A stretch of 39,536 bases of DNA from Escherichia phage NC-A: the sequence record MK310182; one strand, given 5' to 3'. Position 1 is the stretch's first letter, and the number at the start of each line of letters is the position of its first letter. This document shows, one piece after another, positions 1 through 39,536 of this stretch. The position numbers were made by a program, and so were the translations under genes. A model generated the notes under the pieces. It did not search any database and was not told the origin of the DNA. It worked only from the letters and a program-made list of their open reading frames with translations.

Positions 1-158
1 TCTCACAGTGTACGGACCCAAAGTTCCCCCCATAGGGGTACCTAAAGCCCAGCCAATCACCTAAAGACAACCGAAGGTTGACCTTGAGGGTTCCCTAGGG
101 TTGGGATGACCATTTAGTTGTCCTTTGGGTGTTACCTTGAGTGTCTCTCTGTGTCCCT
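1..158. repeat. Left direct terminal repeat (genome end)
   Basis: Bases 1-158 are repeated identically at 39379-39536; begins TCTCACAGTGTACGGACC as in the T7 terminal redundancy. Confidence 0.95.
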
Positions 159-5987: not shown

Positions 5988-6116
5988 ATGCGTAACTTCG
6001 AAAAGATGACCAAACGTTCTAACCGTAACGCTCATGACCTCGAGGCAACCAAAGGTCGCAAGTTGAATAAGACTAAGCGTGACCGCTCTCATAAACGTAG
6101 CTGGGAGGGTCAGTAA
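5988..6116 (+). CDS. 1.1: Gene 1.1 small basic protein (42 aa)
   Basis: MRNFEKMTKRSNRNAHDLEATKGRK...; SD AAGAGAGG upstream. Confidence 0.85.
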   Translation: MRNFEKMTKRSNRNAHDLEATKGRKLNKTKRDRSHKRSWEGQ

Positions 6117-6117
6117 G

Positions 6118-6390
6118 ATGGGTCGCTTATATAGTGGTAACTTAATGGCGTTCAAGGATGCCATAGAGAGGCTTAAAGAAGACCACGATGTCCGTGTGGT
6201 CACTGAGACTTATCGATATGAGAACTACGCACAGCGCCGATGGGTATCCGGTGAGACTCTCCGTATTGTCCTACGTAATGGCCTCGTGCTGACATCCAAG
6301 CGTTTCGAACAGTCAGACGAAGATGTCCGATGCAATGCCAAGACTGAGTGGCTCCGTAAGGTACACGCAGACTTGAAGCACTGGAAGTAA
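6118..6390 (+). CDS. 1.2: Gene 1.2 protein (90 aa), homologue of the T7 dGTPase inhibitor
   Basis: Conserved N-terminus MGRLYSGNL.AFK and C-terminus DLKHWK; central part diverges from T7 gp1.2 as I recall it. Confidence 0.8.
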   Translation: MGRLYSGNLMAFKDAIERLKEDHDVRVVTETYRYENYAQRRWVSGETLRIVLRNGLVLTSKRFEQSDEDVRCNAKTEWLRKVHADLKHWK

Positions 6391-6475: not shown

Positions 6476-7498
6476 ATGATGAACATTAAGACCAACCCGT
6501 TTAAAGCAACGTCCTTCGTAGAGTCTGCCGTTAAGAAGGCTCTGGATAACGCTGGGTATCTTATCGCTGACGTTAAATATGATGGTGTCCGTGGTAACAT
6601 CTGCGTAGACAATACCGCTAACGGTTGCTGGCTCTCTCGCGTATCTAAAACGATTCCGGCACTGGAGCACTTAAACGGTTTCGACGTTCGGTGGAAGCAT
6701 CTCCTGAATGATGACCGTTGTTTCTACAAAGATGGCTTTATGTTGGATGGCGAACTTATGGTCAAGGGAGTGGACTTTAACACGGGGTCCGGCCTACTAC
6801 GCACCAAATGGACTGACACTAAGAACCAAGAGTTCCATGAAGTGTTGTTCGTTGAGCCAGTACGTAAGAAAGAGAAGATACCGTTTCACCTGCACGCAAT
6901 GAAACTTCAAGTTAAACTTTATGCTGTACTACCGCTGCACATCGTAGAGTCTGGAGAAGACTGTGACATTATGACGCTGCTTATGCAGGAACACGTTAAG
7001 AATATGCTGCCTCTGCTACAGGAATACTACCCTGAAATAGAATGGCAAGCGGCTGAATCTTATGAGGTTTATGATATGGTCGAACTCCAGCAACTGTACG
7101 AGGCCAAGCGGGAAGAAGGACATGAGGGTCTCATTGTGAAAGACCCAATGTGCATCTACAAGCGCGGTAAGAAGTCCGGCTGGTGGAAACTCAAGCCTCT
7201 TGAGGAAGCTGACGGAATCATTCAAGGTGTAAACTGGGGAACAGAAGGACTTGCTAACGAAGGTAAGGTAATTGGGTTCAAGGTGCTTCTTGAGACTGGT
7301 CGTCTTGTCGATGCCAATAACATCTCTCGCGCCTTAATGGATGAATTTACAGCTAACGTTAAAGAACATGGCGAAGACTACTATAATGGCTGGGCTTGCC
7401 AGATTGGATTTATGGAGGTAACTAACGATGGGAGTCTCAGACATCCTTCATTCTCATGTTTCCGTGGAACAGAAGATAATCGCTGCGAAAAAATGTAA
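6476..7498 (+). CDS. 1.3: Gene 1.3 ATP-dependent DNA ligase (340 aa)
   Basis: MMNIKTNPFKA...KYDGVRG adenylation motif; SD GGAGA 8 nt upstream; track ORF starts at upstream ATG 6461 with no SD. Confidence 0.93.
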   Translation: MMNIKTNPFKATSFVESAVKKALDNAGYLIADVKYDGVRGNICVDNTANGCWLSRVSKTIPALEHLNGFDVRWKHLLNDDRCFYKDGFMLDGELMVKGVDFNTGSGLLRTKWTDTKNQEFHEVLFVEPVRKKEKIPFHLHAMKLQVKLYAVLPLHIVESGEDCDIMTLLMQEHVKNMLPLLQEYYPEIEWQAAESYEVYDMVELQQLYEAKREEGHEGLIVKDPMCIYKRGKKSGWWKLKPLEEADGIIQGVNWGTEGLANEGKVIGFKVLLETGRLVDANNISRALMDEFTANVKEHGEDYYNGWACQIGFMEVTNDGSLRHPSFSCFRGTEDNRCEKM

Positions 7499-7907
7499 AT
7501 ACAATCCGGCCAGTCCTTCGGGGCTGGTCTTTTTGCGTTTCGGTAAACCAGTTAAAATGGGAACTTTGCGCAAAGATGGTTATTGGTCTACTCAGCTTGG
7601 CAAGAAGAACGTACAGGTACACCGCATAGTTTGGGTGCTAAACTTTGGGTCTATACCCGCTGGTATGGAGATAGACCATATAAACAGGAATCCTAGCGAT
7701 AATCGGATAGAGAACCTTAGGCTAGTGACTAGATCACAGAATGGGTTTAACAGAAGAGTTCCTAAGCAGTCAAGAACCGGTGAGAGATACATCCACACTT
7801 GCTCCAAGACTGGTAGGTTTATAGTGCGGATTTCTGGTAAATCCTACGGCACATATGGTACTCTCGAAGAGGCTATAGCTGTGCGAGATGCTAATACGAC
7901 TCACTAA
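7428..7907 (+). CDS. HNH-AP2 family endonuclease-like protein (159 aa; alternative start 7557 gives 116 aa)
   Basis: HNH_3-type motif DGYW...VHRIVW...IDHINRNPSDNRIENLRLVTRSQN then AP2-like C-terminus YIHTCSKTGRFIVRISGKSYGTYGTLEEAIAVRD; SD GGAGGT 8 nt before ATG 7428; rare codons (AGG/AGA/ATA/CTA). Confidence 0.75.
   Translation: MGVSDILHSHVSVEQKIIAAKKCKYNPASPSGLVFLRFGKPVKMGTLRKDGYWSTQLGKKNVQVHRIVWVLNFGSIPAGMEIDHINRNPSDNRIENLRLVTRSQNGFNRRVPKQSRTGERYIHTCSKTGRFIVRISGKSYGTYGTLEEAIAVRDANTTH
7508..7535 (+). terminator. Early (E. coli RNAP) intrinsic terminator TE
   Basis: GGCCAGTCC-TTCG-GGGCTGGTC hairpin followed by TTTTTGCGTTT; same architecture as the T7 TE element I recall (CTGGCTCACCTTCGGGTGGGCCTTTCTGCGTTT). 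Confidence 0.85.
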
Positions 7908-9684: not shown

Positions 9685-10140
9685 GTGGCTGGCGCATACG
9701 CTGCGCGTGGTATCCGAAAGGTCGGGACATTCCGTTCCGGCCTAGAAGATAAGGTCTCTAAGCAGCTAGAGGGTAAGGGCATCAAGTTCGACTATGAACT
9801 GTGGAAAATCCCTTACGTTGTCCCTGCGAGCAACCATGTGTATACTCCAGACTTCCTGCTGCCTAACGGAATCTTCATTGAAACCAAAGGTTTATGGGAG
9901 AGTGACGACCGAAAGAAACACTTATTGATTCGCGAACAGTTTCCCGAACTGGACATCCGTCTGGTGTTCTCAAGCTCGCGCACCAAGCTGTACAAAGGGT
10001 CTCCGACCAGTTACGGTGAATGGTGCGAGAAGCACGGTATCCTGTTTGCTGACAAATTAATTCCTGTGGAATGGCTCAAAGAACCTAAAAAGGAGGTGCC
10101 ATTTGACAAGCTGAAACAATCGAAGGGAGGAAAGAAATAA
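9685..10140 (+). CDS. 3: Gene 3 endonuclease I, Holliday-junction resolvase (151 aa), GTG start
   Basis: (M)AGAYAARGIRKVGTFRSGLEDKVSKQLEGKGIKF...PDFLLPNGIFIETKGLWESDDRKKHLL; GTG directly follows 2.5 stop. Confidence 0.9.
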   Translation: MAGAYAARGIRKVGTFRSGLEDKVSKQLEGKGIKFDYELWKIPYVVPASNHVYTPDFLLPNGIFIETKGLWESDDRKKHLLIREQFPELDIRLVFSSSRTKLYKGSPTSYGEWCEKHGILFADKLIPVEWLKEPKKEVPFDKLKQSKGGKK

Positions 10141-10595
10141 TGTCTCGTGTACAGTTTAAACAGCGTGAATCTACTGACGCAATCTTTGTCCACTGCTCTG
10201 CTACCAAGCCAAGTCAGAATGTAGGTGTACGAGAGATTCGCCAGTGGCACAAAGAGCAGGGCTGGTTGGACGTAGGCTATCACTTTATCATCAAGCGAGA
10301 TGGTACTGTAGAGGAAGGCCGAGATGAGATGGCTGTAGGCTCTCATGCTAAGGGCTACAACCACAACTCTATTGGTGTCTGCCTTGTAGGTGGTATCGAC
10401 GATAAAGGTAAGTTCGACGCTAACTTTACGCCAGCCCAGATGCAATCCCTTCGCTCACTGCTTGTCACACTTCTGGCTAAGTACGAAGGCGCTGTGCTTC
10501 GCGCCCATCACGATGTGGCACCTAAGGCTTGCCCATCGTTCGACCTTAAGCGTTGGTGGGAGAAGAACGAACTGGTCACTTCTGACCGTGGATAA
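10140..10595 (+). CDS. 3.5: Gene 3.5 lysozyme / N-acetylmuramoyl-L-alanine amidase, RNAP inhibitor (151 aa)
   Basis: MSRVQFKQRESTDAIFVHCSATKPSQNVGVREIRQWH... Confidence 0.97.
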   Translation: MSRVQFKQRESTDAIFVHCSATKPSQNVGVREIRQWHKEQGWLDVGYHFIIKRDGTVEEGRDEMAVGSHAKGYNHNSIGVCLVGGIDDKGKFDANFTPAQMQSLRSLLVTLLAKYEGAVLRAHHDVAPKACPSFDLKRWWEKNELVTSDRG

Positions 10596-13746: not shown

Positions 13747-15861
13747 ATGATCGTTTCTGACATCGAAGCTAACGCCCTCTTAGAGAGCGTCACTAAGTTC
13801 CACTGCGGGGTTATCTACGACTACTCCACCGCTGAGTACGTAAGCTACCGTCCGAGTGACTTCGGTGCGTATCTGGATGCGCTGGAAGCCGAGGTTGCAC
13901 GAGGCGGTCTTATTGTGTTCCACAACGGTCACAAGTATGACGTTCCCGCATTGACCAAACTGGCAAAGCTGCAATTGAACAGAGAGTTCCACCTTCCTCG
14001 TGAGAACTGTATTGACACCCTTGTGCTGTCACGACTGATTCACTCCAACCTAAAGGACACCGATATGGGTCTACTGCGTTCCGGTAAGTTACCCGGCAAA
14101 CGCTTTGGGTCTCACGCTTTGGAGGCGTGGGGCTATCGCTTAGGCGAGATGAAGGGTGAATATAAAGACGACTTTAAGCGTATGCTTGAAGAGCAAGGCG
14201 AAGAATACGTTGACGGAATGGAGTGGTGGAACTTCAACGAAGAGATGATGGCCTATAACGTTCAGGACGTTGTGGTCACTAAGGCTCTCCTTGAGAAGCT
14301 ATTCTCTGACAAACATTACTTCCCTCCTGAGATTGACTTTACGGACGTAGGATACACTACGTTCTGGTCAGAATCCCTTGAGGCCGTTGACGTTGAACAT
14401 CGTGCTGCATGGCTTCTCGCTAAACAAGAGCGCAATGGGTTCCCGTTTGACACGAAAGCAATCGAAGAGTTGTACGTAGAGTTGGCTGCTCGCCGCTCTG
14501 AGTTGCTCCGTAAATTGACAGAAACGTTTGGCTCGTGGTATCAACCTAAAGGTGGCACCGAAATGTTCTGCCATCCGAGGACTGGTAAACCACTACCAAA
14601 ATACCCTCGCATTAAGATACCTAAAGTTGGTGGTATCTTTAAGAAGCCTAAGAATAAGGCACAGCGAGAGGGCCGCGAGCCTTGCGAACTTGATACCCGC
14701 GAGTACGTTGCTGGTTCTCCCTACACACCTGTAGAGCACGTAGTGTTTAACCCATCGTCTCGTGACCACATCCAGAAGAAACTACAAGAGGCTGGATGGG
14801 TCCCAACGAAGTACACCGATAAGGGTGCTCCTGTGGTGGACGATGAGGTACTCGAAGGAGTTCGTGTAGACGACCCTGAGAAGCAAGCCGCTATTGACCT
14901 CATTAAAGAGTACTTGATGATTCAGAAGCGAATCGGACAGGCGGCAGAAGGAGACAAAGCGTGGTTACATTATGTTCAAGATGATGGTAAGATTCATGGA
15001 GCCGTTAACCCAAACGGTGCTGTTACTGGTCGTGCTACTCATAGTTTCCCAAACCTTGCACAAATACCCGGTGTTCGTTCTCCTTACGGGGAGCAGTGTC
15101 GTGCTGCTTTTGGTGCTGAACATCATTTGGACGGTGTTACAGGCAAGCCGTGGGTACAAGCGGGGATAGACGCCAGCGGCTTAGAGTTGCGCTGCTTGGC
15201 CCACTTCATGGCTCGCTTTGACAACGGTGAGTATGCTCACGAGATTCTCAATGGTGACATTCACACTAAGAACCAGATAGCTGCCGAATTGCCGACCCGT
15301 GATAACGCTAAGACGTTTATCTATGGGTTCCTCTATGGTGCTGGTGATGAGAAGATTGGACAGATTGTAGGTGCTGGTAAAGAACGCGGTAAGGAACTCA
15401 AGAAGAAATTCCTTGAGAACACCCCAGCGATTGCAGCACTCCGTGAGTCTATCCAACAAACACTTGTTGAGTCCTCTCAGTGGGTAGCTGGTGAACAGCA
15501 AGTCAAGTGGAAACGCCGCTGGATTAAAGGTCTGGATGGTCGTAAGGTACACGTTCGTAGTCCTCATGCTGCATTGAATACCCTGCTACAATCCGCTGGT
15601 GCTCTCATCTGCAAACTGTGGATTATCAAGACCGAAGAGATGCTCGTAGAGAAAGGCTTGAAGCATGGCTGGGATGGGGACTTTGCGTACATGGCGTGGG
15701 TACATGACGAAATCCAAGTAGGTTGTCGTACCAAAGAGATTGCTCAGGTGGTCATTGAGACCGCACAAGAAGCAATGCGCTGGGTTGGAGACCACTGGAA
15801 CTTCCGGTGTCTTCTGGATACCGAAGGTAAGATGGGTCCTAACTGGGCCGTATGCCACTAA
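13747..15861 (+). CDS. 5: Gene 5 DNA polymerase (704 aa)
   Basis: [44 protein letters not shown]... exonuclease and polymerase motifs; same length as T7 gp5. Confidence 0.99.
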
Positions 15862-15882
15862 TTCTATAGGAGAGAGATAGTT

Positions 15883-16113
15883 ATGGCTACTTGGAAATAT
15901 AGGATAGTTGAACTTGAATACACAGATGGTACTGTTCTGTATTTTCCACAGTTCCGGCACAAGTGGTTTCCATTCTGGAGCTACTTTTGTAGCTATGTAA
16001 ACGAGCGACGACTTGTGTTTACAGACATCGAAGGTGCTAAACGGTTTCTTAGAGAAACACGCGCTAATGATGAACCAGAAGTTAAGAAAGTAAGAAACAT
16101 CCATTCATTCTAA
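15883..16113 (+). CDS. Hypothetical small protein in the gene 5.3 position (76 aa)
   Basis: ATG with SD GGAGAG 8 nt upstream; MATWKYRIVELEYTDGTVLYFPQFRHKWFPFWSYF...; Trp/Phe-rich, AT-rich with rare codons; no domain recognised. Confidence 0.65.
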   Translation: MATWKYRIVELEYTDGTVLYFPQFRHKWFPFWSYFCSYVNERRLVFTDIEGAKRFLRETRANDEPEVKKVRNIHSF

Positions 16114-16126
16114 AGGAGAAATCATT

Positions 16127-16426
16127 ATGGCTATGACCAAGAAATTTAAAGTGTCCTTCGACGTTACCGCTAAGATGCCGTCTGACGTTCAGGCAATCAT
16201 CGAGAAAGACATGCTGCACCTGTGTAAGCAGGTTGGCTCCGGTGCTATTGTCCCAGATGGTAAACAGAAGGAAATGATTGTCCAGTTCCTGACACACGGT
16301 ATGGAGGGTGTGATGGCGTTCGTGGTGCGCACGTCGTTTCGTGAGGCCATTAAGGACATGCACGAAGAGTATTCCGATAAGGACTGCTTCAAGCTATCTC
16401 CTGCAACTGTACGGGAGGTGTTCTGA
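16127..16426 (+). CDS. 5.5: Gene 5.5 protein (99 aa; H-NS-binding in T7)
   Basis: MAMTKKFKVSFDVTAKMPSDVQAIIEKDMLHLCKQVGSG... Confidence 0.93.
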   Translation: MAMTKKFKVSFDVTAKMPSDVQAIIEKDMLHLCKQVGSGAIVPDGKQKEMIVQFLTHGMEGVMAFVVRTSFREAIKDMHEEYSDKDCFKLSPATVREVF

Positions 16427-16635
16427 TGTCTGACTACCTGAAAGTGCTGCAAGCAATCAAAGGTTGCCCTAAGACTTTCCAGTCCAACTATGTGCGTAAC
16501 AATGCGAGCCTCGTAGCGGAGGCCGCTTCCCGTGGTCATATCTCGTGCCTGACTACTAGTGGACGTAACGGTGGCGCTTGGGAAATTACCGCTTCCGGTA
16601 CTCGCTTTCTGAAACGAATGGGAGGTTGTGTCTAA
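16426..16635 (+). CDS. 5.7: Gene 5.7 protein (69 aa)
   Basis: MSDYLKVLQAIKGCPKTFQSNYVRNNASLVAEAASRGH...; ATG overlaps 5.5 stop. Confidence 0.9.
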   Translation: MSDYLKVLQAIKGCPKTFQSNYVRNNASLVAEAASRGHISCLTTSGRNGGAWEITASGTRFLKRMGGCV

Positions 16636-16793
16636 TGTCTCGTGAACTTGTGACTATTCCGCGCGATGTGTGGAACGATATGCAGGGCTACATCGACTCT
16701 CTGGAACGTGAGAACGATAGCCTTAAGAATCAACTGATGGAAGCTGATGAATACGTGGCTGAGCTAGAGGAGAAACTTAATGGCGCTTCTTGA
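16635..16793 (+). CDS. 5.9: Gene 5.9 RecBCD inhibitor (52 aa)
   Basis: MSRELVTIPRDVWNDMQGYIDSLERENDSLKNQLMEADEYVAELEEKLNGAS; acidic, helical; track ORF 16578 is an upstream extension. Confidence 0.88.
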   Translation: MSRELVTIPRDVWNDMQGYIDSLERENDSLKNQLMEADEYVAELEEKLNGAS

Positions 16794-19142: not shown

Positions 19143-20753
19143 ATGGCTGAGAAGCGTACAGGTCTAGCCGAGGAAGGTGCAAAGTCGGTCTATGAGCGAT
19201 TAAAGAACGACCGTGCTCCTTATGAGACTCGTGCTCAAAACTGCGCTCAGTACACCATTCCGTCCCTCTTCCCTAAGGACTCCGATAACTCATCCACAGA
19301 CTACACAACTCCGTGGCAAGCTGTGGGTGCTCGCGGTCTCAATAACTTGGCCTCTAAGCTCATGTTGGCTCTCTTCCCGATGCAAACGTGGATGAAGCTG
19401 ACCATCTCTGAGTATGAGGCGAAACAGTTACTGAATGACCCCGATGGACTCGCTAAGGTCGATGAGGGTCTCTCAATGGTAGAGCGTATCATCATGAACT
19501 ACATTGAGTCTAACAGCTACAGAGTGACTCTCTTTGAGGCTCTCAAGCAGTTAGTCGTAGCGGGTAACGTCCTGCTGTACCTACCGGAACCAGAAGGGTC
19601 AAACTACAATCCCATGAAGCTGTACCGATTGTCTTCTTATGTGGTCCAACGAGACGCATTCGGCAACGTTCTGCAAATGGTGACACGTGACCAGATAGCT
19701 TTTGGCGCTCTCCCTGAGGACATCCGTAAGGCTGTAGAAGGTCAAGGCGGTGAGAAGAAACCCGATGAGACCATTGATGTGTACACTCACATCTACTTGG
19801 ACGAAGAGTCAGACGAATATCTCCGCTACGAAGAGGTTGAAGGTATGGAGATTCAAGGCTCCGATGGGACTTACCCTAAAGAGGCTTGTCCGTACATCCC
19901 GATTCGAATGGTTCGACTAGATGGTGAATCATACGGTCGTTCGTACATTGAGGAATACTTAGGCGACTTACGGTCCCTTGAGAATCTCCAAGAGGCTATC
20001 GTTAAGATGTCCATGATTAGCTCTAAGGTTATCGGCTTAGTGAATCCTGCTGGTATTACCCAGCCACGCCGACTGACTAAAGCTCAGACTGGTGACTTCG
20101 TTACTGGTCGTCCAGAAGACATCTCGTTCCTGCAATTGGAGAAGCAAGCGGACTTTACTGTGGCTAAGGCCGTAAGTGACGCTATCGAGGCTCGCCTTTC
20201 GTTTGCCTTTATGTTGAACTCTGCGGTTCAGCGCACAGGTGAACGTGTGACCGCCGAAGAGATTCGGTATGTCGCTTCTGAACTTGAAGATACTTTAGGT
20301 GGTGTCTACTCTATCCTTTCTCAAGAATTGCAATTGCCTCTGGTACGAGTGCTCTTGAAGCAACTACAAGCCACGCAACAGATTCCTGAGTTACCTAAGG
20401 AAGCCGTAGAGCCAACCATTAGTACAGGTCTGGAAGCAATTGGTCGAGGACAAGACCTTGATAAGCTGGAGCGTTGCGTAACTGCATGGGCTGCGCTTGC
20501 TCCTATGCGCGATGACCCTGACATCAACCTTGCAATTATTAAGTTGCGCATTGCGAACGCTATCGGTATTGACACTTCTGGTATCCTTCTTACCGAAGAA
20601 CAGAAGCAACAGAAGATGGCTCAACAGGCTATGCAAATGGGTATGGATAATGGCGCTGCTGCGCTTGGTCAAGGTATGGCTGCACAGGCTACGGCTTCTC
20701 CTGAGGCGATGGCTGCTGCTGCTGATTCCGTAGGTCTACAGCCGGGCATTTAA
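19143..20753 (+). CDS. 8: Gene 8 portal (head-tail connector) protein (536 aa)
   Basis: MAEKRTGLAEEGAKSVYERLKNDRAPYETRAQNCAQYTIPSLFPK...; same length as T7 gp8. Confidence 0.98.
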   Translation: MAEKRTGLAEEGAKSVYERLKNDRAPYETRAQNCAQYTIPSLFPKDSDNSSTDYTTPWQAVGARGLNNLASKLMLALFPMQTWMKLTISEYEAKQLLNDPDGLAKVDEGLSMVERIIMNYIESNSYRVTLFEALKQLVVAGNVLLYLPEPEGSNYNPMKLYRLSSYVVQRDAFGNVLQMVTRDQIAFGALPEDIRKAVEGQGGEKKPDETIDVYTHIYLDEESDEYLRYEEVEGMEIQGSDGTYPKEACPYIPIRMVRLDGESYGRSYIEEYLGDLRSLENLQEAIVKMSMISSKVIGLVNPAGITQPRRLTKAQTGDFVTGRPEDISFLQLEKQADFTVAKAVSDAIEARLSFAFMLNSAVQRTGERVTAEEIRYVASELEDTLGGVYSILSQELQLPLVRVLLKQLQATQQIPELPKEAVEPTISTGLEAIGRGQDLDKLERCVTAWAALAPMRDDPDINLAIIKLRIANAIGIDTSGILLTEEQKQQKMAQQAMQMGMDNGAAALGQGMAAQATASPEAMAAAADSVGLQPGI

Positions 20754-29491: not shown

Positions 29492-32400
29492 ATGGATAAG
29501 TACGATAAGAACGTACCAAGTGAATATGATGGTCTGTTCCAGAAGGCGGCTGATGCCAACGGGGTCTCTTATGACCTTTTACGTAAAGTCGCTTGGACGG
29601 AATCACGGTTTAAACCCACAGCTAAATCAAAGACTGGACCATTGGGCATGATGCAGTTCACCAAGGCAACCTCTAAGGCAATGGGACTGCGTGTTACCGA
29701 TGGGCCAGACGATGACCGACTGAATCCTGAGTTGGCTATCAACGCTGCCGCTAAGCACCTTGCGGGTCTGGTAGGCAAGTTTGATGGTGACGAACTCAAA
29801 GCTGCCCTTGCGTATAACCAAGGCGAGGGACGCTTGGGTAGTCCACAACTTGAGGCGTACTCTAAGGGAGACTTCTCGTCCATCTCTGAGGAAGGACGTA
29901 ATTATATGCGTAGCCTTCTGGATGTCGCTAAGTCTCCTATGGCTGGACAGTTGGAAGCATTCGGTGGTATCACCCCAAAGGGTAAAGGCATTCCGGCTGA
30001 CGTTGGACTAGCTGGAATCAGCCACAGTCAGAAAGTAACACAGGAACTTCCTGAGTCTACAAGTTTTGACGTTAAAGGTATCGAACAGGAGGCTCCGGCG
30101 AAACCATTCGCCAAGGACTTTTGGGAGACCCACGGAGAAACACTTGATGAGTACAACAAGCGTTCAACCTTCTTCGGATTCAAAGATGCTACCAAAGCTG
30201 TACTATCCAACTCAGTCGCTGGGATGGCTTTCCGTGCTGGTCGTCTTGATAATGGTTTTGATGTGTTTAAAGACACCATTACGCCGACTCGCTGGAACTC
30301 TCACATCTGGACTCCAGAAGAGTTAGAGAAGATTCGAACCGAGGTTAAGAACCCTGCGTACATCAATGTGGTAACTGGTGGTTCTCCTGAGAACCTTGAC
30401 GACCTCATTAAGCTGGCTAACGAGAACTTTGAGAATGACTCCCGTGCTGCCGAAGCTGGTCTAGGTGCTAAACTTAGTGCTGGCGTTATCGGCGCTGGCG
30501 TGGACCCACTCAGCTATGTTCCTATGGTCGGTGTGACTGGTAAGGGCTTTAAGCTAGTCAATAAGGCCCTTGTAGTTGGTGCCGAAAGTGCTGCACTTAA
30601 CGTTGCATCCGAAGGTCTCCGCACATCCGTAGCTGGTGGTAACGCTGACTACTCAGGTGCTGCTTTGGGTGGCTTTTTGTTTGGTGCTGGTATGTCCGCA
30701 ATCAGTGACGCTGTAGCTGCTGGACTGAAACGCAATAAGCCAGAAGTTGAGTTCGACAATGAGTTCATTGGTCCTATGATGCGAATGGAAGCCCGTGAGA
30801 CAGCACGCAACGCAAACTCTACGGACCTCTCTCGGATGAACACTGAGAACATGAAGTTTGAAGGTGAACATAACGGTATTCCTTATGAGGACTTACCGAC
30901 CGAGAAAGGTGCCGTGGTGTTACATGATGGCTCCGTTATAAGCGCAAGCAACCCAACCAACCCTAAGACTCTCAAAGAGTTCTCTGAGGTTGACCCTGAG
31001 AAGGCTGCGCGAGGAATCAAACTTGCTGGGTTCACCGAGATAGGCTTGAAGACCTTGGGGTCTGACGATGCTGACATCCGTAGAGTGGCTATCGACCTCG
31101 TTCGCTCTCCTACTGGTATGCAGTCTGGTTCCTCAGGTAAGTTCGGCGCAACAGCTTCTGACATCCACGAGAGACTTCATAGTACTGACCAGCGTACTTA
31201 TAACGACCTGTACAAAGCAATGTCTGACGCGATGAAAGACCCTGAGTTCTCCACTGGTGGTGCTAAGATGTCTCGTGAAGAGACTCGCTACACTATCTAC
31301 CGTAGAGCGGCATTGGCTATTGAGCGTCCAGAACTACAGAAGGCGCTCACTCCATCTGAGCGTATCGTAATGGACATCATTAAGCGCCACTTTGACACTA
31401 AGCGTGAACTCATGGAGAATCCAGCAATCTTCGGTAATACGAAGGCTGTAAGCATCTTCCCAGAGAGTCGTCATAAGGGAACATACGTTCCTCATGTTTA
31501 TGACCGCCACGCTAAGGCGTTGATGATTCAACGGTACGGTGCTGAAGGTTTACAGGAGGCCATCAAGAAGTCATGGCTAGCAAGTTATGTGTCAAGACCT
31601 GAAGTCAAGGCGCGAGTGGACGAGATGTTGGTAGAGCAGTTACGGGCATCTCAACCAACAGGTAAGACTGCGGGTACTACACCTAATAAGCACTCTTCTA
31701 TCGACACAGCACGTTACCAGATGAAACTGGATGATGCAGCTACACAGGCAAGTGATAAGGTATCGGAACTAAAAGACGTCCTAACAAACGCTGAGAAGCG
31801 AGTTGCGGACCGTGAAAGGAAACTCCAGAACTCCAAGGACAGACTAGCTTCTCATGAGGCTAAGCTGAGGGAGTTGGAAGAAAAACTAGCTGCTAAACCT
31901 AATAGCAAAACCATTCCTGTTAAGATTGAGAGCCGGAAGCAGATGATTGAGACCCAGAAGTCTCACGTCCGTATTAACACAGAGCGTCTCGACTACATGA
32001 AAGGACAGGCTGCTAGGGTCCAAGACAGAATCACCAAAGCCACCGCCGAAGCTGAAGCAGCAGCCTCCGCTGCCAAATGGCAGAAGACTACTGTTGACGG
32101 TGAGGGCACTACTGCTGGTGAGACTATATCAGGTAACGCACCTCAATCAGTACAAGAGGTGACTATGGATATGGTCGAGAAGTACGCTATGGACAAGGCA
32201 TATGGTATCTCCCACTCTGACAAGTTCTCCAACAGCTCCGTGATTGAAGAGAACATTGAGGGCCTAGTAGGTATTGAGAACAACTCGTTCCTTGAAGCCC
32301 GTAACTTGTTTGATTCTGACATATCTATCACAATGCCTGATGGACAACAGTTTGCGGTGAACGACCTAAGGGACTTCGATATGTTCCGCATCATGCCAGC

Positions 32401-34024: not shown

Positions 34025-35899
34025 ATGGCTAACGTAATTAAAACCGTTTTGACTTACCAGTTAGATGGCTCCAATCGTGATTTTAATATCCCGTTTGAGT
34101 ATCTAGCCCGTAAGTTCGTAGTGGTAACTCTTATTGGCGTAGACCGCAAGGTCCTTATGATTAATACAGACTACCGTTTTGCTACGCGTACTACCATCTC
34201 ACTGACTAAGGCTTGGGGGCCAGCGGACGGGTACACTACCATCGAGTTGCGCCGAGTAACCTCCACGACCGACAGATTGGTTGACTTTACGGATGGTTCA
34301 ATCCTCCGTGCGTATGACCTTAACGTGGCTCAGATTCAGACGGTGCATGTAGCGGAAGAGGCCCGTGACCTGACTGCGGATACCATTGGTGTCAATAACG
34401 ATGGTCACTTGGATGCCCGTGGTCGTCGTATCGTCAACCTAGCGAACGCTGTGGATGACCGTGATGCTGTTCCATTTGGTCAACTTAAGGCCATGAATCA
34501 GAACTCGTGGCAGGCACGTAACGAAGCCTTACAGTTCCGCAATGAGGCTGAGACTTTCCGTAACCAAGCGGAGGGCTTTAAGAACGAGTCCGGCACGAAC
34601 GCTACGAATACCTATAAGTGGCGTAATGAGGCTGAGGGATTCCGTAATGAGGCTGAGCAGTTCAAGAATACTGCGACACAACAGGCTACCGCTGCTGGCG
34701 GCTCTGCGGCTGCTGCTCGCCAATCTGAGGTGAACGCTGCTGCCTCCGCTGCTGCTTCCGCTAACTCTGCTACTTTGGCAGAACAGCAAGCAGACCGTGC
34801 GGAACGTGAGGCGGATAAGTTGGGTAACTGGAATGCGCTTGCAGGAGCCATTGAGGGCGTTAATGAGAACGATGTAACGTTCAAAGGAGATATTAAAACC
34901 CCAATGGATGTTGAAGCTGGTGGACTGATATCCACTGGAGCAGGTCATATTACGAAGGGCTTAAGTGTTGGTGAGGCACTTGATGTTAAAGGGGTTACGG
35001 CTCTCCATAAGGATGTGTGGGTAGATGGTGTAGTTGTTGCCAATGGTGGCATACAACAACAATCAGCACCGAACACTTATAACGATATATGGAGGATGTT
35101 TATTAAAGGTGTACCAGCACACATCGGAAACCGACAAGGCCTTCACATAGGTTGGAACGAGACCAGCAATGGGGAGTCTGACTTTGTGACTAACAAAGGT
35201 GCAGGTGGTGGTGGTTTTGTTTTTCGCACGGTAAACTTTGAGAACTCTGCTGAGATAGGTCGCGTTACATTTATGGGTAACGGTGCAGTACGCGCCTTCG
35301 ATTTTCAGGCTGTTAATGGTGCTCGTATTGAGGCTGGAAATAATATAATTGGTGCAAGTATTTTCTCAGGAATGGGTAGCTGTCAATTTGATACTATGGG
35401 CAACTTACTTGGTGGTCTATGGAACAACGTTGGTGGTGATTTATATAACTACCTACAGAACAAGGCACACTTCGCTAAGCCGCCTGGAGGTGTTCAATTA
35501 TTTACCGCACGCGGTGTTGACTACCTTGAGGGCCTTGTGGATAACACAGCGGTTGGTTTCCGGTGGTTCCTGTCAGACAGAAGGCTTAAGGAAAACATAA
35601 AGGTTGTACGCTCCGCTGACGATATGCTTAATATTATCCGCTCGTACATCCCAGTTTCCTATAAGTATAAGGACTCTGAGTACACCGATAATCGTGGAAG
35701 AACCGTTACTGTTACTGGTAAGAAGTCTCGTGCAGGCTTCATTACTCAGGACCTGATCAGAATCTGGCCAGAAGCGGTAGATGTGTTGTCTGACGGAATG
35801 CAATCCCCAGACCCTAACCAAATCATCGGTGGGCTAATGCTGCTCGTTAAGAACCTAGATGAGCGGGTTCAGGAGCTAGAGAAGAAGAATAACGTTTAA
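34025..35899 (+). CDS. 17: Gene 17 tail fibre protein, chimeric (624 aa)
   Basis: Residues 1 to about 285 match T7 gp17 (MANVIKTVLTYQLDGSNRDFNIPFEYLARKF... and FRNEAE repeats); the C-terminal part is unrelated to T7 and ends in an intramolecular-chaperone-like domain. Confidence 0.95.
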   Translation: MANVIKTVLTYQLDGSNRDFNIPFEYLARKFVVVTLIGVDRKVLMINTDYRFATRTTISLTKAWGPADGYTTIELRRVTSTTDRLVDFTDGSILRAYDLNVAQIQTVHVAEEARDLTADTIGVNNDGHLDARGRRIVNLANAVDDRDAVPFGQLKAMNQNSWQARNEALQFRNEAETFRNQAEGFKNESGTNATNTYKWRNEAEGFRNEAEQFKNTATQQATAAGGSAAAARQSEVNAAASAAASANSATLAEQQADRAEREADKLGNWNALAGAIEGVNENDVTFKGDIKTPMDVEAGGLISTGAGHITKGLSVGEALDVKGVTALHKDVWVDGVVVANGGIQQQSAPNTYNDIWRMFIKGVPAHIGNRQGLHIGWNETSNGESDFVTNKGAGGGGFVFRTVNFENSAEIGRVTFMGNGAVRAFDFQAVNGARIEAGNNIIGASIFSGMGSCQFDTMGNLLGGLWNNVGGDLYNYLQNKAHFAKPPGGVQLFTARGVDYLEGLVDNTAVGFRWFLSDRRLKENIKVVRSADDMLNIIRSYIPVSYKYKDSEYTDNRGRTVTVTGKKSRAGFITQDLIRIWPEAVDVLSDGMQSPDPNQIIGGLMLLVKNLDERVQELEKKNNV

Positions 35900-35947
35900 G
35901 GATGACACCAGATTGAGACCAAGGAGGGTCTTTAATAAGGAGGAGAC

Positions 35948-36151
35948 ATGCTGTCTTTGGACTTCAATAATGAGTTAGTCAAGGCTGCACCTATTGTTGG
36001 CACTGGTGTGGCTGATGGCGCTGCGAGGCTTTTCTTTGGGCTGAGTCTTAATGAGTGGTTCTATGTTGCTGCTATCGCCTACACAGTGGTTCAGATTGGT
36101 GCCAAGGTAGTCGATAAGATGATTGACTGGAAGAAAGCCAATAAGGAGTGA
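35948..36151 (+). CDS. 17.5: Gene 17.5 class II holin (67 aa)
   Basis: MLSLDFNNELVKAAPIVGTGVADGAARLFFGLSLNEWFYVAAIAYTVVQIGAKVVDKMIDWKKANKE. Confidence 0.95.
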   Translation: MLSLDFNNELVKAAPIVGTGVADGAARLFFGLSLNEWFYVAAIAYTVVQIGAKVVDKMIDWKKANKE

Positions 36152-39378: not shown

Positions 39379-39536
39379 TCTCACAGTGTACGGACCCAAA
39401 GTTCCCCCCATAGGGGTACCTAAAGCCCAGCCAATCACCTAAAGACAACCGAAGGTTGACCTTGAGGGTTCCCTAGGGTTGGGATGACCATTTAGTTGTC
39501 CTTTGGGTGTTACCTTGAGTGTCTCTCTGTGTCCCT
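39379..39536. repeat. Right direct terminal repeat
   Basis: Identical to bases 1-158. Confidence 0.95.

Follow-up and report, generated by a model that had tools for sequence, protein, structure and literature searches.

A PHROG 18049 gene on a one-gene AT-rich cassette between genes 5 and 5.5 of the T7-like Escherichia phage NC-A

The small AT-rich open reading frame (ORF) between the DNA polymerase gene (gene 5) and gene 5.5 of Escherichia phage NC-A is a genuine, translated-type gene carried on a one-gene cassette. Its 76-aa product belongs to PHROG 18049, which together with its relatives makes up a phage-specific family of small single-domain proteins that has no Pfam family. The NC-A gene is a new allele of this already catalogued, uncharacterised family, and its behaviour supports its classification as an accessory gene, since the slot it occupies is empty or filled by other genes elsewhere, it was found in only 30 of 50,697 phage records, and its composition is foreign in all 17 copies examined. 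As to function, we tentatively favour a non-enzymatic protein that modulates or inhibits a conserved host component stoichiometrically and confers a conditional benefit in host takeover or counter-defence.

The ORF and its surroundings

The window analysed here is the complete genome of the phage (39,536 nt, MK310182), a T7-like Teseptimavirus with a terminal repeat of about 158 nt, most of which displays approximately 90% identity to the T7 genome. The ORF, its flanking spacers and its neighbours are arranged as follows.

13747..15861, + strand: gene 5, T7-type DNA polymerase of 704 aa and upstream boundary of the slot (stop TAA at 15859-15861; about 91% nucleotide identity to T7 gene 5 up to 15862)
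15862..15882, + strand: left copy of the spacer and ribosome-binding site (RBS), TTCTATAGGAGAGAGATAGTT, with the Shine-Dalgarno (SD) sequence AGGAGAG at 15868-15874, defined by junction comparison
15883..16113, + strand: coding sequence of the 76-aa protein (ATG start, TAA stop; 9.46 kDa, pI 9.2), PHROG 18049 member
16108..16126, + strand: right spacer/RBS copy, TTCTAAAGGAGAAATCATT, which is the RBS of gene 5.5 and overlaps the last codon and stop of the ORF, defined by junction comparison
16127-16426, + strand: gene 5.5, downstream neighbour
16426-16635, + strand: gene 5.7, downstream neighbour
16635-16793, + strand: gene 5.9, downstream neighbour

A sequence-only reading of this DNA had described a well-initiated 76-codon ORF at 15883..16113 on the plus strand, and these coordinates proved exact. 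The ATG lies 10 nt beyond the end of the GGAG core of the SD, 21 nt separate it from the gene 5 stop, and 13 nt lie between the ORF stop and gene 5.5. The neighbours were also as that reading had given them, with gene 5 upstream and genes 5.5, 5.7 and 5.9 downstream; gene 6 comes next. No T7 promoter with three or fewer mismatches was found between 8917 and 17804, and the ORF is therefore placed in the class II (DNA-metabolism) transcripts together with genes 5.5, 5.7 and 5.9.

The AT-richness and rare codons reported for the ORF are borne out by the numbers. Its GC content is 39.4% (GC3 35%) against 48.8% for the whole window, which puts it at the 1.4th percentile among all 231-nt windows; rare codons account for 10.5% of its codons against 4.4% in 20 long reference ORFs, seven of its eight Arg codons are AGA, AGG, CGA or CGG, and its CAI-like index is 0.615 compared with a median of 0.726. 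The protein is indeed rich in Trp and Phe, with 3 Trp, 8 Phe and 5 Tyr making 21% aromatic residues, and contains 2 His and 1 Cys in total.

A phage-specific family of small proteins

Profile comparison matched the protein to PHROG 18049 with an E-value of 8.9e-26, residues 3-74 of 76 aligning with profile positions 2-73 of 75, and more weakly to PHROG 8363. An exhaustive profile search of 1.84 billion representatives returned 230 sequences at E<=1e-3, nearly all of them free-standing proteins of 64-85 aa; PHROG 18049 was also matched by 55 of 65 members of this wider family. The label "unknown" in the sequence-only reading therefore fails in the sense of an orphan, since the ORF is a member of PHROG 18049 and of a larger family with about 230 representatives (counted at 50% identity). 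A word-indexed search of 5.8 billion proteins gave 19 clusters, and a degenerate DNA pattern added about 25 more distant members from IMG/VR. Many of the IMG/VR members lie on contigs of 147-211 kb, from large metagenomic phages, with small unannotated ORFs around them, and frequently in groups of two or three adjacent paralogues (L033, L055, L062, L047 and L063). A scan of IMG/VR with the profile of alignment A2 recovered three known isolates only, the A3 profile being too diverse for such a scan, and tblastn of the distant members against cultured phages gave few or no matches. Outside the T7-like phages, family members are not adjacent to a polymerase gene.

Among the 30 phage records in which tblastn detected the gene, all carriers whose taxonomy was checked are Studiervirinae, from at least five genera (Teseptimavirus, Berlinvirus, Kayfunavirus, Caroctavirus and Elunavirus), with hosts including Escherichia, Salmonella, Citrobacter, Cronobacter, Shigella, Klebsiella, Yersinia, Erwinia and Pantoea. 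No identical protein was found in the databases searched. The closest copy from an isolate is that of Escherichia phage vB_EcoM_CQ615 (XDJ04411, 87% amino acid identity), and the closest sequence overall is a metagenomic protein, P0001 (97%). The window allele represents a rarer subtype, shared with CQ615 and P0001-P0005, which displays approximately 50% identity to the common Berlinvirus-type allele. Full-length homologues of 74-76 aa with 46-87% identity, namely Cronobacter phage Dev2 gp5.1, Citrobacter phage CR8 gp5.01, XDJ04411 and bas67_0030 of Bas67 ErnstBeyeler, share with the ORF both the gene 5/5.5 slot and the same motifs, including the DEPEV tail described below.

No member of the family carries a functional name apart from "homing endonuclease" labels. 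Literature searches with the motif string, the PHROG identifiers and gp5.3 returned nothing on this protein, and the family motifs are absent from the accessory-gene preprint of Silas et al. and its 39 supplements.

Conserved residues and predicted structure

Column statistics and AF2 modelling divide the protein into the following parts.

15892..15960, + strand: residues 4-26, predicted long beta-hairpin with the signature KYRIxE...G...YxPQ[YF][KR] (AF2, pLDDT 84-94; column statistics)
15961..16026, + strand: residues 27-48, aromatic WFPFW loop and short strands (AF2; column statistics)
16027..16065, + strand: residues 49-61, predicted alpha-helix with the xEEAxxFI motif (two AF2 runs; column statistics)
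16066..16110, + strand: residues 62-76, low-confidence C-terminal tail (pLDDT 67-75 in model 1, <50 in model 2)
16069-16083, + strand: T7-clade motif D63-E-P-E-V67 (alignments A1 and A2)

The first AF2 model, with a mean pLDDT of 83.6, places the strands of the hairpin at residues 4-12 and 18-26, and a second run on a deeper alignment of 65 sequences predicted the same topology (pLDDT 72.4). The signature of the family reads KYRIxE-G-YxPQ[YF][KR]-FW-F-(EE)AxxFI. Across 165 aligned sequences, the hairpin columns are sharply conserved: position 5 is K/R in 86%, position 6 aromatic in 91%, R7 present in 163 of 164, position 8 always aliphatic, G16 present in 80%, position 20 aromatic in 97%, P22 and Q23 present in 96% each, and position 25 K/R in 90%. 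In the later columns of the same alignment W32 reaches 98% and A52 96%, position 56 is aliphatic in 99%, and F35, F46 and F55 are aromatic in 84-88% (86% for F35 and 88% for F46). The window protein itself carries Y6, R7, P22, Q23, W32 and A52 as well as the clade motif D-E-P-E-V, and its pI of 9.2 is close to the mildly basic family median of 9.0.

The only conserved polar residues are K5, R7, Q23 and K/R25, all of which lie on the hairpin; apart from G16 and P22, conservation otherwise falls on hydrophobic or aromatic residues of the type found in a core. In the predicted model, K5, R7, K/V9, Y/F21, Q23 and K/R25 would lie on one face of the hairpin and Y6, I8, Y20, P22 and F24 would face the core, and because the strand register puts them on one face, the conserved polar residues probably form a single basic and aromatic surface. 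In the tail, D-E-P-E-V is nearly invariant between two T7-group alleles whose mutual identity is only about 50%, a pattern which, judged from the alignments, would be expected of a short docking motif. The last residue of the conserved tail is aromatic or aliphatic in the T7-group alignments.

BLASTP and profile searches and structure prediction, which the earlier reading had proposed as checks, yielded the PHROG 18049 match and the AF2 model and no significant match to a characterised protein or solved fold. Foldseek against the PDB gave no convincing relative, the best hit having an E-value of 0.25 and most hits being double-stranded RNA-binding domains (dsRBDs); a fold search of BFVD returned uncharacterised phage proteins only, and sequence-profile searches of the PDB with A1 and A3 found nothing meaningful. 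The ORF has no match in Pfam, NCBIfam or PADLOC, and a Pfam scan of 65 family members produced only noise (NDUS4 in four at E 0.0017 or worse, Arm-DNA-bind_4 in one and WGR in one). Neither sequence nor fold comparison revealed similarity to a known inhibitor or a defence-related family. The family is widespread, compact and easily testable, with about 230 representatives, a well-defined motif and a confidently predicted model; none of its relatives has a solved structure.

Three resemblances were followed up and rejected. UPF0339/DUF1508 (YegP-like), a small beta-beta-beta-alpha domain that is itself of unknown function, looked similar by eye and showed no kinship at the profile level (hhalign 1.4%, no HMM match). 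AP2/ERF, also noticed by eye, scored 4.6% in hhalign, and no family member reaches any Pfam threshold. The dsRBD gave at best the Foldseek E-value above with a TM-score of 0.38, and the model is without an N-terminal helix. Compared with AP2/ERF, integrase Arm-type domains and dsRBDs, the PHROG 18049 protein has an extra aromatic WFPFW loop and lacks the N-terminal helix of dsRBDs.

A slot with four states and a mobile cassette

The junctions of the window were compared with those of CQ615, T7, YpsP-G, 13a, PhiV-1 and EG1. The segment non-homologous to T7 runs exactly from 15863 to 16109. In YpsP-G and 13a the slot is empty, and a 19-nt spacer, TTCTATAGGAGAAATTATT, joins the gene 5 stop directly to the gene 5.5 ATG. 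The first 12 nt of the left spacer copy, TTCTATAGGAGA (15862-15873), equal the spacer directly before gene 5.5 in these empty-slot phages, and the corresponding unit of the right copy is TTCTAAAGGAGA (16108-16119), the two forming a direct repeat with 11 of 12 positions identical. Both the ORF and gene 5.5 open with ATGGCTA.

Other phages fill the slot differently: T7 has a PD-(D/E)XK gp5.3 (PF11645 PDDEXK_5, E 1.1e-10) and phiYeO3-12 an HNH gp5.3. The gene 5/5.5 junction therefore exists in at least four states, i.e. empty or occupied by a PD-(D/E)XK gene, an HNH gene or the PHROG 18049 gene. The HNH occupant has been described as a mobile element of the presence/absence type (PMC4925675), and T7 gp5.3 as dispensable and readily lost (PMC9825161).

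The order gene 5, PHROG 18049 gene, gene 5.5 was found in 17 of 17 T7-group contexts, including copies only 30-35% identical, with the gene after the PHROG 18049 gene being an unnamed hypothetical protein in the SK1 context. The annotated contexts are CQ615, PhiV-1, Dev2, EG1, ErnstBeyeler, K12P1.1, CR8 and ZCEA1; the others comprise YSYH, which is unannotated and whose gene order was read from its ORFs, and the contigs P0001, P0004, P0005, P0020, P0021 and P0026 (two places). In all 17 copies the GC content of the cassette is 2.5 to 9.5 points below that of its flanks. In PhiV-1 and CR8 the ATG of the gene overlaps the gene 5 stop (TAATG).

Two mosaics of opposite kind were encountered. EG1 matches the window at about 90% nucleotide identity in both flanks and carries a cassette of the Berlinvirus type with 61% nucleotide and 50% amino acid identity; conversely, in the P0004 and P0005 contigs the cassette is 87-90% identical to that of the window and gene 5.5 only 65%. 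The cassette has therefore been exchanged independently of the backbone. Together with the junctions, this shows that the cassette moves from one phage backbone to another through recombination within or close to the conserved flanks and the duplicated RBS spacer. A four-state cassette site of this kind is useful for phage engineering and for reading mosaicism.

Proposed binding of a host factor

The favoured function, binding of a conserved host component, is a tentative one. The protein would be made in the middle (class II) period along with gp5.5, gp5.7 and gp5.9, and would bind and modulate its target stoichiometrically, with no catalysis. The contact proposed is the conserved basic and aromatic face of the hairpin (K5, R7, Y/F21, Q23 and K/R25), and in the T7 clade the DEPEV tail may provide a second contact as a short docking motif. 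We favour a host-factor binder because the gene is dispensable and rare, because it sits with the genes for gp5.5, gp5.7 and gp5.9, because the family forms diversifying paralogue arrays, and because almost all characterised small non-essential early and middle proteins of T7 (Ocr, gp0.4, gp1.2, gp2, gp4.5, gp5.5, gp5.7 and gp5.9) are stoichiometric inhibitors of host proteins. The size of 76 aa, the single small domain, the failure to match Pfam, NCBIfam or PADLOC and the restriction of conserved polar residues to K5, R7, Q23 and K/R25 also point toward a non-enzymatic binder, and the tandem arrays of paralogues seen in large phages are what diversifying accessory binders typically show.

Homology of the family to proteins with a known host target or defence system was searched for and none was found, and an anti-defence or host-interaction role, which the sequence-only reading had thought plausible for this location, is a reasonable guess from position only. 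The protein has no significant sequence or structural similarity to T7 gp1.2, gp2, gp4.5, gp5.5, gp5.7, gp5.9 or Ocr, and, unlike most small T7 inhibitors, a PHROG 18049-type domain is spread across very different phage groups. Some observations speak against a host protein as the target: a basic patch kept in phages whose hosts differ widely suits a chemically invariant ligand, such as nucleic acid, no less than a protein, the family as a whole is mildly basic, and the strict adjacency to gene 5, with the overlap in PhiV-1 and CR8, could mean a role linked to replication. Should a host target be found, T7 host takeover would gain one more member and the paralogue arrays of large uncultured phages a function; the practical value is modest.

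Nucleic-acid binding as the main rival

The main rival, which we regard as possible although doubtful, is a small nucleic-acid binder whose hairpin or short sheet and helix would contact DNA or RNA through the K5/R7/Q23/K25 face (with Tyr21). Such a protein might act in an AP2/Arm-type or dsRBD-like mode and would influence replication, recombination or the fate of transcripts during the class II period. The invariance of the basic face in phages of very different hosts would be better explained by a nucleic acid than by a host protein, and weak dsRBD, AP2 and Arm resemblances, none of them significant, hint in the same direction. The comparison with the AP2 profile, however, covers the strand-helix junction only, and the PDB profile searches returned no relevant match. 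Moreover, by a count of charged residues in the alignment many members, including the Berlinvirus-type alleles, are approximately neutral, the tail of the T7 clade is acidic, and three paralogues per genome would be unusual for a DNA-binding regulator. To our knowledge, the characterised small non-essential T7 proteins include no DNA binder.

An unlikely further reading is that the KYRI-PQ-W family, PHROG 18049 and its relatives, could be a phage-wide class, not recognised before, of small ligand-binding proteins with a fold of their own, for instance a sponge or sequestering protein that captures a nucleotide-type immune signal, or a nucleic-acid binder of minimal size acting via the invariant Arg7, Gln23 and Lys25. 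If this were true, the T7-group gene would stand beside gp5.5, gp5.7 and gp5.9 as a new factor in counter-defence or host takeover.

A link to the replisome

The fixed position raises an explanation that we consider rather improbable, namely that the protein is a replisome accessory, co-translated with the DNA polymerase, which would bind gp5 (or gp4 or gp2.5) via its conserved tail and tune replication. Wherever T7-like phages carry the gene, it directly follows gene 5, in at least five genera and down to 30% identity, and the TAATG overlap in PhiV-1 and CR8 suggests translational coupling. The conserved tail has an aromatic or aliphatic end, and in T7 both gp2.5 and gp4 dock on gp5 by way of their C-terminal tails. 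Yet the tail lacks a strongly acidic character; the gene is missing from about 97% of T7-like records, whose polymerases are approximately 90-95% identical to those of carriers; and polymerase adjacency is not seen outside the T7-like phages. A recombination hotspot common to this gene and homing endonuclease genes accounts for the position just as well.

Neither gp5.3 nor a homing endonuclease

"Homing endonuclease" or "putative homing endonuclease" is the label attached to the homologues in the CQ615, ErnstBeyeler, CarlSpitteler and vB_YenP_WW1 records and to a UniRef cluster. The idea has some basis in the slot, which houses free-standing endonuclease genes in T7 (PDDEXK_5) and phiYeO3-12 (HNH), and in the cassette, which is AT-rich and mobile as endonuclease genes are. 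The T7 and phiYeO3-12/T3-type gp5.3 genes indeed resemble the PHROG 18049 gene in sharing its slot and in being non-essential, polymorphic for presence and absence and compositionally foreign. The PHROG 18049 protein, in contrast, is unrelated to either gp5.3 in sequence, is smaller, has no nuclease motif and has another predicted fold.

T7 gp5.3 has 118 aa, so that the ORF product is, as had been said, 42 aa shorter. Its kinship to T7 gp5.3 was rejected, BLASTP giving E 0.68 over 5 residues and the ORF having no Pfam match where gp5.3 is recognised as PF11645, and the full-length homology that would have spoken against the sequence-only reading was thus not found. Kinship to the HNH gp5.3 of phiYeO3-12 was rejected likewise, with an hhalign probability of 0.2% and no match to an HNH family among the Pfam and NCBIfam models; the positive control, an HNH gene at 7428-7907 of the window, matched HNH_3 at 1.2e-21. 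The statement that the protein contains no HNH motif was upheld, because its sequence includes no more than 2 His and 1 Cys.

That the protein is a homing endonuclease or the decayed remnant of such an enzyme is therefore very improbable and effectively excluded: no nuclease family was matched in Pfam or NCBIfam, no catalytic motif is present, and 76 aa is too small. The full-length protein is moreover under purifying selection and not decaying, and the wider family is made up of free-standing proteins of 64-85 aa. The label is unsupported by sequence or predicted fold and appears to be a positional transfer from gene 5.3, and the present analysis corrects its spread through GenBank and UniRef.

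Selection on the ORF

Short length, low GC, poor codon adaptation and the absence of functional annotation everywhere would also suit an AT-rich intergenic insert whose ORF is spurious or without function, or else a gp5.3 that has diverged strongly, and the evidence for a real gene makes this hardly credible and effectively excluded. Substitutions are the only differences among the five close DNA copies (those of the window, CQ615 and three T7-like contigs from metagenomes), with no indels and pairwise dN/dS values of 0.28-0.57, which argues against a spurious ORF. The ORF is intact in every relative examined; distant copies (30-52% identity) keep the frame, the length (70-77 aa) and the sharp motif pattern, and the same genomic position is kept down to approximately 30% identity. 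Conservation of the protein to this depth, the confident AF2 model and a good SD that is conserved in relatives likewise oppose a spurious ORF, and the lack of similarity to gp5.3 opposes the diverged-gp5.3 version.

An RNA element was considered as an explanation for the region and rejected, with no Rfam match there and an unremarkable RNA fold (z -1.8). A 172-aa ORF on the minus strand (15586..16104), which overlaps the 3′ end of gene 5, is regarded as mechanical; among the T7-group loci examined, the single gene call on the minus strand is a 92-aa hypothetical protein in Pantoea phage SK1.

Junction between gene 5, the cassette and gene 5.5 in relatives

In PhiV-1 (L003 3004) and CR8 (L009 2504), the ATG of the family gene overlaps the stop codon of the DNA polymerase gene (TAATG), which implies that it is translationally coupled to gene 5. 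Unlike these copies, the family gene of the window has its own Shine-Dalgarno sequence and lies 21 nt past the gene 5 stop. The contigs encoding P0004 and P0005 are otherwise close relatives, 87-95% identical to the window over gene 5 and the cassette, whereas their gene 5.5 allele (L025 and L026, 3245-3541) shares only ~65% nucleotide identity with that of the window; this drop places a mosaic breakpoint directly downstream of the cassette in both.

Alignment with relatives also revealed that the start codon of the phage EG1 homologue (ATW57735.1, L005 2531-2725) given in GenBank is an internal codon, yielding 64 aa; the true start lies 33 nt upstream, giving a protein of 75 aa beginning MAWRYRI.

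Distant family members

Distant members adjoin one another as two or three paralogues amid small unannotated ORFs, on IMG/VR contigs of 15-211 kb, several of which are large uncultured phage contigs:

L033 13144-13922, paralogue array
L055 1859-2882, paralogue array
L062 5237-6015, paralogue array
L047 11256-11720, paralogue array
L063 3905-5712, paralogue array

A tblastn search with one distant member as query returned no relative among cultured phages. A few family proteins, P0029 and P0033 (101-102 aa), carry a hydrophobic, transmembrane-like N-terminal extension ahead of the KYRI motif, the N-terminal part of the family signature. Because no alternative start codon was found immediately ahead of the domain in P0033, membrane-anchored variants of the family may exist.

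Comparison of the whole genome with T7

Each end of the window (1-158 and 39379-39536) matches both T7 ends (160-nt terminal repeat) at ~91% identity, and the window therefore spans an entire linear T7-like genome, bounded by a ~158-nt direct terminal repeat. Three endonuclease-type accessory genes of T7 are missing: gp5.3 has been replaced, and comparison with T7 revealed the clean absence of the other two:

9688/9709, junction corresponding to T7 9860-10278, gene 2.8 (endonuclease) absent
19137/19143, junction corresponding to T7 19843-20240, gene 7.7 (HNH endonuclease) absent

The window does carry a different HNH gene, flanked by the ligase gene and gene 1.6:

7428-7907, + strand, HNH_3 endonuclease ORF of 159 aa (Pfam, E 1.2e-21)

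Most of this ORF falls within a segment (7351-7888) that has no T7 counterpart, and its codon adaptation (0.585) is the lowest in the reference set, which consists of 20 long ORFs on the + strand, each of at least 150 aa. By eye, its C-terminal 40 residues (GERYIHTCSKTGRFIVRISGKSYGTYGTLEEAIAVRD) have an AP2-like appearance; AP2 was not called by Pfam in this ORF.

Divergence from T7 was found at three further places:

6079-6390, + strand, gene 1.2 homologue (Pfam T7-like_gp12, E 1.5e-13)
31628-32167, segment without blastn similarity to T7, inside gene 16 (internal virion protein D) by T7 coordinates
34855-35948, segment likewise lacking blastn similarity to T7, placed by T7 coordinates in the C-terminal part of gene 17 (tail fibre)

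The gene 1.2 product is a dGTPase inhibitor. Within the homologue, blastn detected no similarity to T7 gene 1.2 across 6141-6372, and the window gene is another divergent allele among the host-interaction genes. The divergence of the tail-fibre segment probably reflects differing receptor specificity.
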